In this document: in pieces, positions 7,208 through 64,000 of the stretch
Numbering within the stretch: position 1 is the stretch's first letter
Layout of the letters: every line of letters starts with the position of its first letter
Source: Octopus vulgaris
Lineage: Eukaryota
Assembly: GCA_951406725.2 (NCBI GenBank)
Contig: OX597819.1
Coordinates: 12,276,001 to 12,340,000 of the forward strand
Length of the DNA: 64,000 nt
Direction: 5' to 3'
The notes under the pieces: model-generated
The model's input: only the letters and a program-made list of their open reading frames with translations
Told to the model about the DNA's origin: nothing
The model's database searches: none
Translations under genes and position numbers: made by a program

Positions 7208-8282
7208 CCCTTTCGTTACTATATTTCTGACCAAAATACACCCCTTATGTGTTTCAATTAATTTCTAACGTAATCATAAATTTAGTCTGGTTTCATTAAA
7301 CAACTATAACTTTTTTATTTATCAATATATTAACGGGAATTTTGGAAGATAATTTAATGAAATGTTCTCAACCAATTCTATACTATAATTTTTGTCACAA
7401 AGTGACTCTAATTGCAGGTAGATACAGGTAAATTCAACAAAATATAAAATTATTAAAATTTTGTTCAAACATCGCTATAGAAAATGGGTTATTAGCTAAT
7501 ATTCAATTGGGTATACAACAAAATTTTACGATAGAATTTGTTATTCTGGGTAACTTTCTGATACCCATAATAATATTTATGGCAAAATAGTCTTAATTTC
7601 ATTTAAGGTTGTGGGAAACCACTAACTATACTTTCTTTCGTTTTGTTTACATTTAGCCTAACGGTTCGTTTCCGCCGTAATGATTTCAAATAGGCTCATT
7701 CGAAAAAGTAAAAAGAAATAGTCTAAGGCTTTACTCTTCTGGGAAAGTCTGTGGCTTGGTCCAGTTTCTTCAGAAAAATCACCGAAAGAAACAGTTTTTA
7801 AATTTTCACTCCATTCAGGTGCCAATTCATTTTCTTTATCGCTGTCGGAGCTCTCGGATTCACTGTTTTCACTTTCAGAAAATGAAACATCAGATTCATT
7901 ATCAAATACCACATGCTTTTTTTTTTCAGTCATAGAGTTAGATTTATGAAGGTCTTCAGTAGAAAATCCTTCGAATTCTGACTCGCTGCTTGATATAATG
8001 AAATTCGTATCCATTTTTGTCAGAATTACAAATTTTGAAAACACAATAGGAACAAATTTCGGAAAAAAATCTCCCAAAATTCACGGAATTAAAATTACAC
8101 TTCGATTGTTGTACAAAACTGTAGTTGAACTCTTTACGAAGTATAATACATATTTTCACGAATGTATTAAAGAGATTTGCTCTGATATTCTCATTTAAAT
8201 ATGAATAGGTAAATTCGGGCGGCTTTGGGCGGTTTGGTCACATTAACCAAAATTTTTTTCGGGCGGTTTGGTAACGAAAGGG
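7208..8282 (-). mobile_element. Internally deleted piggyBac transposon
   Basis: TTAA on both sides and TIR CCCTTTCGTTAC/GTAACGAAAGGG. ORF 7658..8077 resembles the acidic N-terminus of piggyBac transposases (F.E.TGP...LDYFFLLF...I..ETNR). Confidence 0.88.
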
Positions 8283-45863: not shown

Positions 45864-47693
45864 TATTTCAAAGAATTGGCCATAAAGGCCGTACATAGAA
45901 GAAGATGCGGGCTGGACAAAACACAAGATGAAATGAATAGAAAAAATGAATAAACGAAATTGGTGAAGGCAGACGATGCCTGCCGATCGCTGCTTCCCAA
46001 AATCATTGTTCTTTTTTTTTTTAAACAAATTGAGGTTATAAACCTCTTACATTGGTTCATTTGGACACAAGGCCCTTAAAAATGAGGCACTAAGCCTCTT
46101 ACATTTTTCAAAAATGGGTTGTACACCCTTACAACGCGAAGCACTAAGACCTCTTAACTTTTTTTGCTATTATTTTCTTGCCTGCTGATACCCGACCAGG
46201 CTCAATGCCTCAATGGTGCTAGGTCGGGGTGCTTCAGCAGGAAGTGAAACATGTCTTCAGGGAAGGAGTCCATCACCTTGCAAAGACCTGTATCCCAAAT
46301 GACCTCCACAGCTAGCTTTGTAGTTCATTCAGGATCCTTAGTGCAGGTTAGAACCCCTCCCCCCGATCTTCTTTGACAAACTTTTGAACTGCCCCTCCCT
46401 TGTGGAAGAAAACCAAAAATTCCTCCTCCAAATGGAGGGAGGCTACAGCTTCCTCTGTTGGTGGCACAATTCCCACCGACGGGGCTTCAGAAATTTCCGG
46501 CAATGGCCTGTTTTTCTTCTTTTTTTGCTTATTTTTACCATGGGAAGGTGGAGCTCCTCCGTTTTGTCAGGGAGATTTTCGTTCCCTCCCACAGTTTCAG
46601 TTTCCTTTTTAGGATCCCTCAGTGGGCAGCCATTGTTACCCACCTTCTTCCTCTTTCTTCTCTTTTTTGAGGAGGCTTCCACCTCCTCGACCATCTCCAT
46701 CTCTCCTGAATGAGGAGTGGGAGGCACTTCTTCAACTAACTGCTCCAGTATCACTGAATACCTGTTACCAGCCATAGTCAAAAGATCTGGAAAAACCAGA
46801 TTTCTTGCAGCTGATTGGGTCCACAGGACCAAAACAGCTTTTGACCCGCCAGCAACAACTTCACATTCAACAGCTTGGGTCCGCTGCCACCTAGACCCCG
46901 GCGGATAGTATCTTCTATCCACTCAGGTTCCATTCCAGGTGGCAATCCACAGACCCAAGCTCTTGTTAATTTCTTCCCACAATATGTGGGAAGAAACAGA
47001 ATCTCTTGCCCTTCCAAGGGCTGGCTCACAAACCTGTGAGCCTCCTCAGGGGTGTCAAACAGCAGCCACACTGTTGCATATTTGGCACCCCTGGAAATAA
47101 ATCTTATGGTTGGCAGATACTCTGCCAACTCTTTTTCAATATCTATTTTTTTTAAGACGGCGATGGTGTTGAGCAACTTTGAGTATGTCCTCAACACCAC
47201 TATCCTCTCCTCAAAGTTTTTCACCCACTCTTTGAGTGGGACAATCTCCCACTCCAAAGCAGTGTCCTTCTTCTTCGCCATATTCATTTAGAAAAATGTT
47301 CAAAAAATCAAGAAAAAAGAAAGAAAAGAAGAAGGAAAGAAGACAGGTCACAGACACAGTGAACACAATTCTGGCTAACTGGTACTCTACAGGAACAGGA
47401 ACACAGCTCCACAAATTTCACCTAAAATTTGGTGGAAAAAAATTCCACAATTTTTTGGAGGCCCCAAAACAACAGTCTTCTCACAGCTAAGTGAGACACT
47501 TAGTGCAACTACAGGCAGACAAATGCCCAGAATCCAGTAGGGATTTCTTGTTCGAGAAAAATAAACAATAAACAACAAACCCTCACTGAATCCAAAAAAA
47601 CAAATGCCTTCAATAGTTCAACAATTCATGATGCTGCATACCAACATCGTGACACCATTTAGTGAAAGGAAAACACTGACACGCGCATGCAAA
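45864..47693 (-). mobile_element. ORF1-only non-LTR retroelement (HAL1-like, L1/Tx1-type ORF1), frameshifted
   Basis: 15-bp TSD GT(T/A)AGCAAGCTACTT at 45849-45863 and 47694-47708 splits a SINE. AATAAA sits at the 3' end. Overlapping ORFs 46778..47287 and 46443..46922. No reverse transcriptase. Confidence 0.7.
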
Positions 47694-55814: not shown

Positions 55815-56600
55815 CGTCTAAATTACAAAAATGAAAATAACACTTATCTCATTTTAACAGATAAATTTATCAAAATTACATAAAAATATCTTGAAATACT
55901 AAAGAGTAAATTTATTCAATAAAATCACCATTGGCTTCAACCACTGCTTCCAGACGACTTCAGAATCTCCTGCAACTCTTCTGGACGGTCTCCTTGTTTA
56001 AGCTGCCATAATCCTTGCCTTCAGTTCATCTTTGGTGTTACAAGGAGTTTTGTTGGTCTCTCACTCAACTGCAACCCACACATAATAATCAAGGGGATCG
56101 CAGTTTGGGGAGTTAGGTGGCCAGATGTTAGAGAGGTCACAGAAATTGTTTGACAGCCATGACTGGTTTCTCTTGCTTGTGTGGCATGGTGCAGAGTCCT
56201 GTTGCCAGACATAGGGTCTTCTAGCAGCCACCATCAGAGCCCAGAGCAACATTACCACCTCCAGACACTTGATGTAGGCCTCTGTGTAGAATCTAAGGCC
56301 ACATGGGAAGATGAATGGAAGCATAAGGTCACCATCACTAGTGATCACTCCAAACACCATGATGTTGATTGGATGTTTGTTTTTATCACCCAAATGCTCT
56401 GAAATGTACATATTGGAGCTTCCGGTGCAAATGCCAAGCAGTACAGCATGTCGTTTCCAAATTTCTGGCAGAGTGAATTACATCATGGTGCTGTGTTTTC
56501 ACAGACAGTGCCCAACTGACCCTACTATACTGTATAGCAGACAAAATCAAAAGCAAACAATGCACATGCGTGAAATAAAAAAAAAAAAAAAACCCTGTCT
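55815..56600 (-). mobile_element. Internally deleted Tc1/mariner-superfamily (maT/DD37D-like) element; boundaries approximate
   Basis: ORF 56061..56411 contains KHP..IMVFGVITSDG, WQQDSAPCHTS and WPPNSPNCDPLDYYVW. Confidence 0.8.
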
Positions 56601-56979
56601 ATGTACACACAATATAACAAGTAGTTTCATGTTTTATAGAAGTGGCAAAGTAAAATAAACAAAATTTGAAAGCAAAGCAGTATATTTTCTTGGTATTAAT
56701 AATCTTCAGGTAAATATTTATGTAATGGTAGCATCAACAGGTATTGTGCCTCACATTCAAGTAGCTGTAGTGAAATTACTGGATTTTTTTACATCCCCGT
56801 AATGTAGCAGTTCGGCAAAAAGAGACCAATAGGCTCACAAAGAAAAAGTCCTGGGGTCGATTTGCTTCACTAAAAGGTGGTGCTCCAGCATAGCTGTAGT
56901 CAAATGACTGAAAGAAGTATAAGAATATCTACAAAAACACATGAAGCACAAAGAAAACTGGAAACAAAAACAGGTTTGT

Positions 56980-56985
56980 TTTATT
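56980..56985 (-). terminator. Probable polyadenylation signal of the SRA gene (3'UTR about 1.6 kb)
   Basis: AATAAA on the minus strand followed by a U/GU-rich tract (tgtttttgtttccagttttctttgtg). The interval 57000-58570 has no recognisable transposon. Confidence 0.55.
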
Positions 56986-58570: not shown

Positions 58571-58831
58571 TTAAACACTGGAATCTTCACCATCGACATC
58601 ATTATCCGTCATTTCATTACATTTGCCCATGCCATCCTCATCACTGTCATTTTCTTCAGCAGGAGAATCACCATCACAGTTGTCTTTCTTCACCAAATCC
58701 AATCCATTGTCTTTATTACTACTACTGCTGCTGTTTGAGTGTTGACTCGCTGTATCAGAGTCTAACAAATCTACACCAGAGTCAGCATCCGATTCTTCAT
58801 TTGCTTTATCACTAAAAGTATCTTGGTTTTT
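58571..58831 (-). CDS. SRA-YDG domain protein terminal exon, acidic Ser/Asp/Glu tail ending in TAA
   Basis: ttttacag acceptor in phase 0, 87 codons KNQDTFSDKANEESDADSG...DGEDSSV*, in frame with ORF 58571..58768. Confidence 0.85.
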   Translation of the reverse strand, partial: KNQDTFSDKANEESDADSGVDLLDSDTASQHSNSSSSSNKDNGLDLVKKDNCDGDSPAEENDSDEDGMGKCNEMTDNDVDGEDSSV

Positions 58832-58964
58832 CTGTAAAATAGAACAAAGATCATTGAAACCTGAGAAATGAAGGCAAAATAATAATTCAATGCAGTAAAT
58901 TTAAGAAAGGATATCAATTGCTCACTTTATTTGGGTCATCGCATTGTTTAATGCTAGACTTATG

Positions 58965-60000
58965 ATATGGTGTCTTACATTATGAATTTCTTCTAATTCC
59001 ATCAAAGTTGGTTTAATACATGACCGAAGTCATCCTCTGTGCCTAGTGTAAAGATGTGAGCAGTTTCAACTGGTGTCGAAATCAAATTTGATGACTGGCT
59101 AGTCCTTGCTAGTGGAGCGCTAAGAGCACCATCCCAGCGCGATCGTTGCCAGAGCAACAAACTGGCTTCTGTGCCAGTGGCACATAAAAAGCAACATTCG
59201 AGCATGATTGTTAGCCCTGCGAAGCCTTACTGGTACTTGTGCTGGTGGCACGTGAAAAAACAATCGAGCGAGGTCGTTGTCAGTGCCGCTGGACTGGCCC
59301 CCATGCAGGTGGCATGTAAAAAGCACCATTTGAGCGTGGCCGTTGCCAGTACCGCCTGACTGGCCCTCATGCCGGTGGCACATAAAAAGCATCCAATACA
59401 TTCTCGGAGTGGTTGGCGTTAGGAAGGGCATCCAGCTGTAGAAACTCTGCCAGATCAGATTGGAGCCTGACACAGCTGCCTGGCTTGCCAGTCCTCAAAC
59501 TGTCTAACCCATGCCAGCATGGAAAGTGGACGTTAAATGATGATGATATCTCTTTACATTCTACTACAGACACACTGTTCAGACATCTGGGTCTTTAAGA
59601 AATCAAGTTTTTATTATGAATCAGTGTTTATGCACCAGTAGTTATCACCATGGTCACTGGAGTGTAGACGGAATCACAGAGTCTAACACAGCAATTAAAC
59701 CTCAATTGTAGACTTGCTGCTCACCTATATACGGCAACAACAGCTTCAGTTATACACTTATTATCTGACATATCCTCCTATCTATGCACCTTTGGGTTTC
59801 TATTACGGATTGAGCCAGGTATGATTTAGTAAGTCAACTGGTCGAACCAGGAATTGAACCTGTAACCCAGACTGCTTACTGAGGTCTTAACACCAGTTGA
59901 AACTGCTCACAACTTTACACTAGGTACAGAGGATGACTTCAGTCATTTAAACCAACTTTGATGGAATTAGAGAAGAACTTCATAATGTAAGACACCATAT
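58965..60000. repeat. ~112-bp inverted repeat pair (58965-59076 / 59890-60000) in the last intron of the SRA gene
   Basis: atatggtgtcttacattatgaa...cagtttcaactggtgt matches the reverse complement of acaccagttgaaactg...taatgtaagacaccatat, with few mismatches. Confidence 0.9.
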
Positions 60001-60591
60001 AACTCTTTTAGTTGTTTCAGTCATTTGACTGCGGCCATGCTGGAGCACCGCCTTTAGTCGAGCAAATCGACCCCGGGACTTATTCTTTGTAAGCCCAGTA
60101 CTTATTCTATCGGTCTCTTTTGCCGAACCGCTAAGTGACGGGGACGTAAATACACCAGCATCGGTTGTCAAGCAATGCTAGGGGCACAAATACATACACA
60201 CACACACACACACACATACAGACATACATATATACGATAGGCTTCTTTCAGTTTCCGTCTACCAAATCCACTCACAAGGCTTTGGTCGGCCCGAGGCTAT
60301 AGCAAAAGACACTTGCCCAAGATGCCACGCAGTGGGACTGAACCCAGAACCATGTGGTTGGTAGGCAAGCTACTTACCACACAGCCACTTCAGTCTAGCA
60401 TTAAACAATGTTATGTAGAATACCGAAAACATACTTAGAAAACACTATAGAATGCACTCGAGGGATGTATGCTGCTGTTTCTAGTAGCTTGAGTGACTAC
60501 AAAGAGGCTCTATCAAAAAGTTATACAATTGCTTTTATTCTACAGCAGTCATTTGCATAAATAAATAATAAACAGTCAACAATCAGCTTAC

Positions 60592-60701
60592 CACAGTCCA
60601 TGGAGGAGGAGCCTGGTTGGGACAGCGCCGGAGTGCAAATTTCCACACACCGAAACCAGAAAGACCAATGGTGTACCAGTATTTTTCCACAGTGTAGAGG
60701 C
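60592..60701 (-). CDS. SRA-YDG domain protein exon (LYTVEKYWYTIGLSGFGVWKFALRRCPNQAPPPWTV)
   Basis: ctacag acceptor, GTG|GTAAGC donor, 110 nt. C-terminal half of the SRA domain. Confidence 0.94.
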
Positions 60702-61148
60702 CTGTAGCGTGAAGAAAAAGAAAATATAAAAATACATGTAAAACAACTTTAAATCACATGGCTTTGCATGGTGCAGGGACATAACAGAAGATGATTGCCC
60801 AAGGTACAGTGCAATGGGACTAAAGCAACACGGTTGAGAAGCGAGCTGGCAGAAACGTTAGCACGCCGGGCGAAATGCGTAGCCGCATTTCGTCAGCCGT
60901 TACGTTCTGAGTTCAAATTCCGCCGAGGTTGACTTTGCCTTTCATCCTTTCGGGGTCGATTAAGTACCAGTTACACACTGGGGTCGATATAATCGACTTA
61001 ATCCGTGTGTCTGTCCCTGTTTGTCCCCTCTGTGTTTAGCCCCTTGTGGGTAGTAAAGAAATAGGTTGAGAAGCTAATTTAACCACATAGCCATGCCAGT
61101 GTTAAGCTCAGAAAGCCAGTTCAGCCAACTCAATAAAATAATCCTTAC

Positions 61149-61302
61149 CATCATAACGATATCCTTCTTCAGGGGCAAAATCACTCTTGGATTTATAGCC
61201 TCGGATCACTCTAACAGTTCTCCCTAGTTCACAGTTGCGACTCAGAGCTAAGTTTCCTCGAGTCAATGTTTGGTCTTTAGACTGTGGTGCTGTTCGTAAA
61301 TT
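61149..61302 (-). CDS. SRA-YDG domain protein exon (NLRTAPQSKDQTLTRGNLALSRNCELGRTVRVIRGYKSKSDFAPEEGYRYDG)
   Basis: ttttcag acceptor, G|GTAAG donor, 154 nt. Contains DQxL-NxAL, VRVIRG and the YRYDG (YDG) motif. Confidence 0.95.
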
Positions 61303-62745
61303 CTGAAAAGGTGGGGAAAAAAAAAAGAAAGTTTTAAAATTTGAGTAAGCAATAGTTTATTCTGTAAAATAAACATGGATAAAGTAGAAAAGAAACAAAG
61401 GATCTCATCATCATTTAACATCCGTTTTCCCACTCTTGCATGGGTCAGATGGAATTTACTGAGGCAGACTTTCTATAGCCTGATGCCCTTTCTGCTGTCA
61501 GCCCTCACCGGTTTCCAAGGAAGGTGATATTTCTCCAGGGCGAGACATGTTCATCACAGAAGATTGGAGATGAACAACAGTTTGTGTGATGCTCATATAT
61601 CTCACATACAGTGGGGTGCAAAAGTCTGGCACTCTGTCGCTTACAAGGGTTCCAGTTGATCCAATCAATGTAACATCTTGCTCAGGAGATTAATGTGTAA
61701 GTGGCTGAGCACTCTACAGACACATGTACCTATTCACATACTTCTCAGGAAGATCCAGCGTGACACAGAGTGTAACAAGGCTGGCCCCTTGAAATACAGG
61801 TGCTACTTATTTTTGCCAGCTGAATTGACTGGAGCAACGTGAAATAAAGTGTCTTGCTCAAGGACACAACGTGACACCTGGAATTGAACTCGTGATCCTA
61901 TGATTGTGAACCGAATACCTTAACCACTATGCTATGCACCTTCAAAAGTAGGTAACCAGTATCACATCAATGTTATAATACTTAATTGATTAAAATTATT
62001 AGCACATTAAATTAGTTAGTCTCATTTTTGATATTTTCAGTGTCATTAATTATAATAATACATTTGTAAAAGCTAACACTTATTTTCCAAGCTAAGATTC
62101 GAAACTGCATCTAAGGATTATTGCTCGTCTGATCCACCATTGGCCAAACAGGCACGAAAGGAATTTTTTTGACCTGTCAAAAAATGATGGATGGATTTCC
62201 CTTTGACCTCGGACCTGAGTAGTGTCACTGAAGGTTCAAGTGGACAGGAGGCAACCTACATAGGTAGAAATTACTCCTGTGGTATGTTTGTCCTTTTACC
62301 TGGGATCACCATTATAAATACAGTCAGACACATGACAGATAAACAGATAGCCATCAACAGGCAAATGGTCAAGAGACAGCAGACAACAGAGAACCACATA
62401 TTCAGCATGAATTACCCAACACAGTAGCGGTCACAGAACATAAACAGACATGACCAAATGACCAACGCACACACAGACACAAAAAATGTCTGGTTCCACC
62501 TCATCACATCAACACAGCATATCTCCAGTTCATTTTTTACTTTACCAACTCGAAGCAGATTGGTAACATCATGTAGCAGCTTTCCTTGTGTATACCACAC
62601 ATAAATCCAAGTGTCGATTAAATAAATCATTTAAACCACAATCCAATGCTTGTTTTACTTTGTTGTCGTCAACATCTGCTACATCAACAATATCTTTTGC
62701 TACACATTTATCATAACTATTATTATACTTTTAACGTAACTTTTA

Positions 62746-63262
62746 AATGTCTTGCTATGCTAGAGTAAGAATAGCCTGGACAAAGTTCAGCGAGCTCTTA
62801 CCCCTGCTGGTGACAAAAGGCCTCTCGCTCAGAGTAAAAGGCAGACTGTATGATGCATGTGTACGAACAGCCATGCCACATGGTAGTGAAACATGGGCCG
62901 TGACTGCTGAGGATATGCGTAAGCTCGCAAGAAATGAAGCCAGTATGCTCCGATGGATGTGTAATGTCAGTGTTCGTACTCAACAGAGTGTAAGTACCTT
63001 GAGAAAAAAGATGGCACGTAAAAAAAACACCTTCTGAGCATAGTCATTGCCAGTACCGCCTGACTGGCCCTCATGCTGGTGGCATGTAAAAGCACCTGCT
63101 ACACTCTCGGAGCAGTTGGCATTAGAAAGGGCATCAGGCTGTAGAAACTTTGCCAGATGGGATTGGAACTTGGTGCAGCCTTCTGTCTCTCCAGTCCTCA
63201 GTCAAACCGTCCAACCCATGCTGGCATGGAAAGCGGATGTTAAACAACGTTGGTGATGATGG
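62746..63262 (+). mobile_element. RTE-clade LINE fragment joined to its 3'UTR
   Basis: ARVRIAWTKF.ELLPLL...KGRLYDACVRTAM.HGSETW...EASMLRWMCNV, followed by the ggcacgtaaaaa repeat and a (GAT)n-type tail. Confidence 0.88.
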
Positions 63263-63930
63263 GGATATTGTGGGAAGACTTTTGCCAAGGGAACCACAGA
63301 GTGGGACTGAACCTAAGGCTGCCTGGTTGGGAAGCAAGTTTCTTAACCACACAGCCACACTTCAGCTGTAGTACAATAACCAACAATAAAAATAAAATAA
63401 CTACAGAATTTAGTTAGCGATAAGGCTAAAACTTTCATTCTCTTTATTCATACATTTTTGGGGTTGTGTTGCTGTAAGAAATTTTCATTATTGTTTCTTC
63501 ATACACCTGCAGAATCATCATCATCATTGTTGTTTAACGTCCACTTTCCATGCTGGCATGGGTTAGACAATTTGATTGAGGACTGGCAAGCCAGGCAACT
63601 GTATCAGGCTCCAATCTGATCTGGCAGAGTTTCTACAGCTGGATGCCCTTCCTAACGCCAACCACTCCGAGAGTGTAGTGGGTGCTTTTCCATGCCACTG
63701 GCATGAGGGCCAGTCAGGTGGTACTGGCAACGGCCACGTTCAAAAGGTGTTTTTTATGTGCCACCTGCACAGGAGCCAGTCTGGCAGCACTGACAACAAC
63801 CACGCTCAAATGTAGTCTTTCATGTGCCAGTACGGCGACACTGGCAACGATCATGCTCGAATGGTGCTTTTTAAGTGCCATTGGCATGGGAGCCAGTCAG
63901 CGGCCCTGGCAATGAAGAAATACAACTTAC

Positions 63931-63968
63931 CTTTGGATTTGTTTTGGTACCTCTGAGATCTCGACCTC
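63931..63968 (-). CDS. SRA-YDG domain protein, internal exon (GGRDLRGTKTNPK); upstream exons lie outside the window
   Basis: tattaccag acceptor, AAG|GTAAGT donor, 38 nt. GGRDL motif of SRA domains. Confidence 0.88.
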
Positions 63969-64000
63969 CTGGTAATATGAAGAAGAAAGGATTCAACGAT

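Follow-up and report, generated by a model that had tools for sequence, protein, structure and literature searches.

A stand-alone SRA protein of Octopus vulgaris with an N-terminal helix resembling the HELLS-binding helix of CDCA7

The window analyzed here is a stretch of 64,000 nucleotides from Octopus vulgaris (NCBI GenBank assembly GCA_951406725.2, contig OX597819.1, positions 12,276,001 to 12,340,000 of the forward strand), which carries on its minus strand the last four exons of a gene for an SRA domain protein. The encoded protein is a stand-alone SRA protein, not UHRF1, and its first exon, recovered outside the window, encodes a helix whose sequence matches the one with which CDCA7 binds HELLS. 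This match suggests a CDCA7-like HELLS adaptor in which an SRA domain replaces the zinc finger, a reading to which we assign a probability of roughly 0.6; binding and activation of HELLS by the octopus helix are predicted from the helix match. Mutations of CDCA7 lead to ICF syndrome (immunodeficiency with centromeric instability and anomalies of the face). In the literature covered, HELLS is inactive on its own, and no activator of it other than CDCA7 is described (PMC11343034, PMC11417364, PMC12885070).

The helix-SRA gene comprises nine exons with a total of 1,077 nucleotides, encoding 358 residues, and the window carries exons 6 to 9. Exons 1 to 5 were placed via an Octopus bimaculoides protein (P0002, 358 residues), the top match of a search with exon 7, and recovered up to 21 kb outside the window. 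The features are as follows, with exons 1 to 5 in contig coordinates and all others in window coordinates (pLDDT, predicted local distance difference test; UTR, untranslated region).

12361000-12361083, minus strand: exon 1, coding part, with the ATG and a helix (residues 4-22) resembling the CDCA7 HELLS-binding helix
12347308-12347457, minus strand: exon 2, basic linker, with an R-R-S-x-R-L motif at residues 69-77
12346120-12346222, minus strand: exon 3
12343046-12343106, minus strand: exon 4
12341808-12341923, minus strand: exon 5, with thumb Val136 and pocket residues Tyr156, Asp159 and Tyr168
63969..64000, minus strand: end of intron 5; the gene continues past the window
63931..63968, minus strand: exon 6 (38 nucleotides), in which the SRA finger begins, including the 6-residue insertion; joined to exon 7 in four of four runs
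61149..61302, minus strand: exon 7 (154 nucleotides), from N-L-R (the counterpart of UHRF1 N489-K490-R491) to the YDG motif
60592..60701, minus strand: exon 8 (110 nucleotides), final SRA strands
58571..58831, minus strand: exon 9, coding part, with an 86-residue net-acidic, unconserved tail of low pLDDT and the stop codon
56950..58570, minus strand: 3′ UTR (about 1.6 kb), with contig ends at 56948-56969 in three runs and AATAAA at 56985 and 57058

A preliminary description of the window had proposed four exons (63968-63931, 61302-61149, 60701-60592 and 58831-58571) in phase to a stop, and this structure is borne out by GT-AG introns, a frame open to a TAA, and contigs from four of four runs (one contig each; four studies) that skip all three window introns, with joints at 61302/63931, 60700/61148 and 58831/60592. 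The runs are RNA by guess, none being recorded as RNA and one coming from a second organism, and the evidence for splicing is the joints. The ATG of exon 1 lies four codons downstream of an in-frame stop. Exon 1 shares its contigs with exons 6 to 9 (equal lengths and depths), leaving 41-167 nucleotides of 5′ UTR, and in contig X1 it occupies positions 2593-2798 of the record, precisely as the exon lengths predict. After the stop codon the contigs of all four runs continue into the 3′ UTR, for about 1.6 kb in three of them. On contig C4 (about 62792600-62792950, minus strand; L060:1336-1687), an intronless partial copy comprises the 5′ UTR, exons 1 and 2 and the start of exon 3, with 87% protein identity across 83 residues followed by unrelated sequence. 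This truncated, processed copy retains the helix and the R-R-S motif but has no SRA domain.

The protein is laid out as an N-terminal helix, a basic linker, an SRA domain and an acidic tail. Its match to SAD_SRA is far past chance (Pfam, E 2.1e-55), and in seven of seven relatives scanned no other Pfam family is significant. No UBL, TTD or PHD domain was found upstream of the SRA domain with Pfam, and there is no space for them, because the ATG follows an in-frame stop and lies so close to the 5′ ends of the contigs. On the 3′ side no RING was found, since Pfam gives SAD_SRA alone and the contigs of all four runs pass from the stop into the 3′ UTR rather than splicing to a RING exon. SET and HNH domains were likewise not found in the octopus protein with Pfam. 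A genome search revealed two SRA loci, and the second, on contig C8, carries UBL, TTD, PHD, NKR-finger SRA and RING exons, that is, a full UHRF1; the preliminary description, which had called the window protein a non-UHRF1 protein without a RING, was right on both counts and in considering a separate true UHRF1. The same genome carries CDCA7 on contig C1 and HELLS on contig C17, and a second stretch, at C26:22231478-22231615 (L063), matches CDCA7 at its C-terminal end with 73% identity and is a putative paralogue or pseudogene. No zf-4CXXC_R1 domain was found in the helix-SRA protein with Pfam, the genome's match to this family being on C1. The protein therefore belongs to neither CDCA7, as it has no zinc finger, nor UHRF1.

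Phylogenetic analysis agrees with this assignment. Of 266 proteins, 205 had a near-complete SRA domain, and a tree of 157 rows was computed after thinning the animal matches and adding the genome's UHRF1 (quick IQ-TREE, with Shimodaira-Hasegawa-like approximate likelihood ratio test support only). The genome's UHRF1 and the rows bearing PHD, TTD or RING form a 22-row NKR clade (support 98), and the octopus protein lies outside it in an animal long-finger clade (support 97). When the finger columns were cut (FastTree, 151 rows, six having been dropped for lack of a finger match), 22 of 22 NKR rows still fell on one side (98) with the octopus protein outside, so that its SRA domain is not nested in the UHRF1 clade with or without the finger. 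Under a midpoint root, with no SUVH outgroup, the NKR clade falls within the long-finger family, and the root is unsure. Databases often label relatives "E3 ubiquitin-protein ligase UHRF1(-like)", which would suit a truncated UHRF1 duplicate, a mis-annotation or a pseudogene; this explanation, of negligible probability, is refuted by the splicing, by the contigs shared with exon 1 and by both trees, as the open reading frame is complete and spliced, 350 of 358 residues are identical to the O. bimaculoides protein, and orthologues range from chytrids to amphioxus. Compared with UHRF1/UHRF2 and ORTH/VIM, the octopus protein shares the SRA fold (Foldseek, E 6e-19 to 2zo1), the thumb Val, the pocket and N-x-R, whereas it lacks UBL, TTD, PHD and RING, belongs to a separate clade, and has a finger with six residues inserted ahead of N-x-R and the middle K replaced by L. 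The N-terminal helix, in turn, is missing in the RING/PHD-bearing rows.

The preliminary four-exon reading missed this conserved helix in exon 1, which lies 21 kb outside the window. The helix is modeled with a pLDDT of 90-95 over residues 1-20 and occurs in 84 of 85 full-length matches, including 15 of the 16 outside the training alignment; Y5, R9, N12, N16, L20 and G24 are kept in 90-100% of 70 rows, and an R-x-S-x-R-L/I/V motif follows it in 68 of the 85. Among 140 new representatives (two of another type, 56 too short or lacking a finger match), the helix was present in 48 of 67 long-finger proteins with a sufficient N-terminus, versus 1 of 15 NKR proteins. Four proteins (P0353, P0400, P0368 and P0406), which belong to a single cluster of a set from marine microbial eukaryotes, combine a short NKR finger with a helix-like stretch and an R-R-S-x-R motif and are sister to the UHRF1/ORTH rows, which suggests that the helix-SRA layout predates the finger insertion and extends past animals and fungi. 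In five representatives, P0274, P0277, P0295, P0305 and P0339, DUF7923 stands ahead of the SRA unit, as a putative fusion or through merged gene models.

The likeness to the CDCA7 helix was tested by profile comparisons between 70 helix-SRA family members and the 13 full-length sequences among 14 CDCA7 proteins found. Comparison with hhalign gave 92% probability (E 6.4e-7), with the helix as the aligned stretch; a rerun gave 88.6% with a score of 51, against at most 1.4% and a score of 22.8 in 60 column shuffles, 0.4% for the reversed profile and 0.14% versus HELLS. The helices of eight invertebrate-type CDCA7 proteins score 12.4-25.7 bits on the family profile, those of snails reaching 19-25.7 bits. 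When 14,364 open frames of the retrieved DNA were scored with a profile of the CDCA7 helix only, exon 1 came out on top (19.6 bits), followed by the retrocopy of the gene (15.1 bits) and the next unrelated frame (7.3 bits). The octopus CDCA7 helix was taken from P0122, as a search of 70 kb of the octopus genome did not recover its exon. The matched stretch lies 138-142 residues ahead of the first zinc-finger Cys in fish CDCA7; this Cys is at about residue 270 in human CDCA7, so the stretch maps within human residues 112-140. The helix in residues 112-140 is needed for HELLS binding, and its deletion abolishes binding and activation (PMC11343034, PMC11417364, PMC12885070). CDCA7 (HLBH plus zf-4CXXC_R1) and the octopus protein also share the order of parts, namely a helix, a basic R-rich stretch and a methyl-CpG reader with no enzyme domain, and they differ in the reader, which is a putatively base-flipping SRA domain in the octopus protein and a zinc finger in CDCA7. 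Exon 1 had no match among PDB sequences (best E 1.4), where CDCA7 is represented by its zinc finger only. In the ESM Atlas, residues 1-85 gave no usable match without the SRA clusters, and the Kwoniella protein gave SRA clusters on top. As a single query against its own genome, exon 1 recovered itself and the retrocopy, not CDCA7 or WDR76 (two candidates scored). A similar helix presumably stands at the start of WDR76/Cmr1. WDR76/Cmr1 is a HELLS partner (PMC4714748).

The insertion that the preliminary description saw in the finger is real, as the octopus finger is six residues longer than those of mouse and human UHRF1. It ends in N-L-R-T-A with spacing identical to N-K-R-T-A. The HMMER alignment sets a Thr against UHRF1 Asn489; with the gap placed in front of N-x-R, the Asn and Arg are restored and all the CpG-reading residues have counterparts, so a loss of NKR was rejected. 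On residue numbers counted along the mouse/human chains of the alignment, N185, R187, V136, Y156, D159 and Y168 of the octopus protein correspond to N489, R491, V446, Y466, D469 and Y478 of UHRF1, where we take D469 to have a role as well. V446, Y466, Y478, N489 and R491 read hemimethylated CpG (PMC4615792, PMC4333417). In the alignment of 70 members, N185 and R187 never vary, V136 is kept in 98%, Y156 in 100%, D159 in 81% and Y168 in 91%, and conservation is highest in the finger region (94% mean identity). A finger pattern that did not demand the Asn matched 221 of 260 proteins (39 unmatched), and N-x-R was found in 221 of 221 (205 NLR, 12 NKR, 3 NRR and 1 NCR). SUVH and bacterial SRA proteins share the fold and the 5-methylcytosine (5mC) pocket but have a Gln thumb and a short finger and also bind fully methylated DNA, whereas a long finger and a Val thumb are tied to hemimethyl preference (PMC4333417). 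The octopus protein has the Val thumb and, in contrast to SUVH proteins (SRA-SET), no SET domain. By analogy with UHRF1 structures and the Cryptococcus protein discussed below, the octopus SRA domain would flip the base and prefer hemimethylated CG, and the different specificity proposed earlier is probably wrong. It is unlikely that the protein binds HELLS and reads another mark through its altered finger (5-hydroxymethylcytosine (5hmC), full or non-CG 5mC, damaged cytosine) or serves repair. The conservation of the finger does imply some function for the insertion, smuts have kept the family while the model smut is listed without DNMT (PMC10538959), and Neurospora HELLS homologues act in repair without 5mC (PMC4714748); nevertheless the thumb Val, the pocket and N-x-R agree with UHRF1, and the Cryptococcus protein prefers hemimethylated CG, 5hmC not being among the substrates seen in the available text (10.1101/149385). 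The insertion might, speculatively, add DNA or nucleosome contacts.

The Cryptococcus neoformans protein Uhf1 ("Uhrf1", CNAG_00677) has an SRA domain without Tudor or RING and binds hemimethylated CG selectively; it promotes Dnmt5-dependent 5mC, and its loss in clr4 mutants lowers 5mC from 31% to 11% (10.1101/149385). Uhf1 is likely the fungal counterpart of the octopus protein, judging from relatives: the sister genus Kwoniella has the helix and the long finger, Cutaneotrichosporon has the long finger too, and in Kwoniella, Cutaneotrichosporon, smut and chytrid rows SRA is the sole Pfam domain, the long finger ends in N-L-R and an N-terminal helix is present. Relatives in Kwoniella and Cutaneotrichosporon also share the R-R-S motif with the octopus protein. 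The published account of Uhf1 treats it as an orthologue of UHRF1 and, in the available text, draws no link to HELLS (10.1101/149385). Fungal SRA proteins without RING have been counted as UHRF1 homologues, and C. neoformans is listed without CDCA7 (PMC10538959), whereas the octopus has both CDCA7 and UHRF1. This coexistence, and the missing RING, which precludes ubiquitylation of H3, would fit an antagonist that occupies hemimethylated sites and the coiled coil CC2 of HELLS without activation and so dampens maintenance methylation, but the fall of 5mC upon Uhf1 loss in clr4 mutants indicates a promoting role (10.1101/149385) and makes such antagonism highly improbable. Among cephalopods, a 2022 paper noted an SRA-only protein, YDG-OCTBM (Ocbimv22020196m), and set it aside (PMC9476566). 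It is almost certainly the O. bimaculoides orthologue, as Ala171 and Thr179 of the octopus protein agree with the labels "S486A" and "N494T". The paper regarded the CpG-recognition residues as missing, whereas here the gap before N-x-R restores them; the labels "N494T" and "motif disrupted in YDG" in its figure apparently set Thr against Asn, and its available text does not mention the helix (PMC9476566). No published link of such an SRA protein to HELLS, nor a note of its helix, was found in a literature search that left most subscription papers uncovered.

The preliminary description had placed the protein with stand-alone SRA proteins of invertebrates and fungi, and its named relatives agree. 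The exon 7 search gave 540 relatives, of which 120 were listed and 30 representatives looked up; those listed include molluscs, cnidarians, echinoderms, hemichordates, amphioxus, annelids, brachiopods, bryozoans, some arthropods and chytrids, with basidiomycetes, an ascomycete and other fungi as further relatives, and no vertebrate name appears among the matches listed. For comparison with CDCA7, HELLS and DNMT, parts 2-6 of 18 of the PMC10538959 supplement were used, with columns inferred from the layout and rows counted by hand. In arthropods, 9 of 45 rows have DNMT1 and HELLS without CDCA7 and 22 have all three (PMC10538959). For five of the nine CDCA7-less arthropods (a spider, a barnacle, Daphnia and two thrips), the group has a named helix-SRA member among the matches listed, versus none of the 22 CDCA7-bearing ones at family level, three of which fall, like a leafhopper match, in the order Hemiptera. 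The presence of helix-SRA proteins in CDCA7-less, HELLS-bearing lineages (Daphnia, thrips, spiders) is a mere lead, since it draws on 120 of 540 matches and 30 representatives, related species do not count as independent cases, and in places the helix is drifted or missing. C. neoformans and Daphnia pulex have 5mC and HELLS and no CDCA7 (PMC10538959).

Several observations weigh against a CDCA7-like HELLS adaptor or its role as a stand-in. The match spans just 22 core columns of a charged helix, its ends are unlike (L-G in the octopus family versus L-x-x-D/E in CDCA7), and with the family profile the five fish-type CDCA7 helices reach no more than 1.2-9.2 bits, against up to 5.3 for decoys. 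The finger is modeled at a pLDDT of 54-59, so the N-x-R register is alignment-based. In spiders and thrips the helix has drifted (4 bits or less on the CDCA7 profile), the barnacle record lacks its N-terminus, and neither it nor the damselfly record has the helix. Two blastocladiomycetes are listed, as table entries only, with a UHRF1-like protein and no HELLS, and the family occurs in smut fungi, although no DNMT is listed for Ustilago maydis (PMC10538959). Family membership of C. neoformans comes solely from Kwoniella and Cutaneotrichosporon, and Uhf1 loss alone hardly alters 5mC (10.1101/149385). The octopus, other molluscs and cnidarians also retain CDCA7, so the helix-SRA protein is not needed as a stand-in there. 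A reader of hemimethylated CpG whose helix binds not HELLS but another partner, be it a DNA methyltransferase, histones or itself, with the CDCA7 likeness due to a shared chromatin motif or convergence, would accommodate the short, charged helix, the weak fish scores, the Dnmt5-dependent 5mC promoted by Uhf1 (10.1101/149385) and the UHRF1-like proteins of HELLS-less fungi (PMC10538959). We consider it rather unlikely, as the shuffled, reversed and HELLS-helix controls are far lower, the snail CDCA7 helices score well, and the order of parts is that of CDCA7.

The tail encoded by the last exon is indeed 86 residues long, although its description as acidic/Ser residues was overstated (26 D/E, 15 S and 6 K). 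It is the least conserved part of the protein (6% column identity; 4-236 residues in 68 rows), is net acidic in 64 of 67 rows, keeping its charge and not its sequence, and has a pLDDT mostly below 50. A role as a specific DNA mimic, suggested in the preliminary description, has nothing behind it except charge and was rejected because the tail is so poorly conserved; speculatively, the tail may merely tune DNA binding. Elsewhere in the window, the introns (59000-60500, 60770-61070 and 61400-63900) are packed with highly repeated short elements to which many contigs per run map. Three minus-strand open frames of 138-169 residues (7661-8080, 46446-47287 and 56064-56477), which resemble pieces of transposons (piggyBac-like, long interspersed nuclear element ORF1-like and mariner-like), had no Pfam match at E 0.01.

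In the proposed CDCA7-like mechanism, the SRA domain would flip and hold the 5mC of a hemimethylated CpG after the replication fork, and the helix would dock on the coiled coil CC2 of HELLS/DDM1, recruiting HELLS or switching it on. Docking would relieve the autoinhibition of HELLS, and the freed HELLS would remodel the nucleosome for the maintenance methyltransferase. The R-R-S-x-R-L motif may, speculatively, touch the nucleosome or aid HELLS activation, like the basic stretch after the CDCA7 helix. More tentatively, and at less than even odds, the HELLS-binding helix may be a portable docking module and the helix-SRA family an ancient second HELLS adaptor standing in for CDCA7; if so, this would account for HELLS and DNA methylation without CDCA7 in Cryptococcus, Daphnia, thrips and spiders, and the fungal "Uhrf1" would functionally be a CDCA7 rather than a UHRF1. 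The existence of a second adaptor, built on another type of reader, would mean that the docking helix is modular, would require a family named "UHRF1-like E3 ligase" in databases to be re-read, the RING being absent, and would offer a possible reason why methylating species can do without CDCA7. Helix-SRA proteins are likely an overlooked second route that brings HELLS to hemimethylated DNA in invertebrates and fungi.

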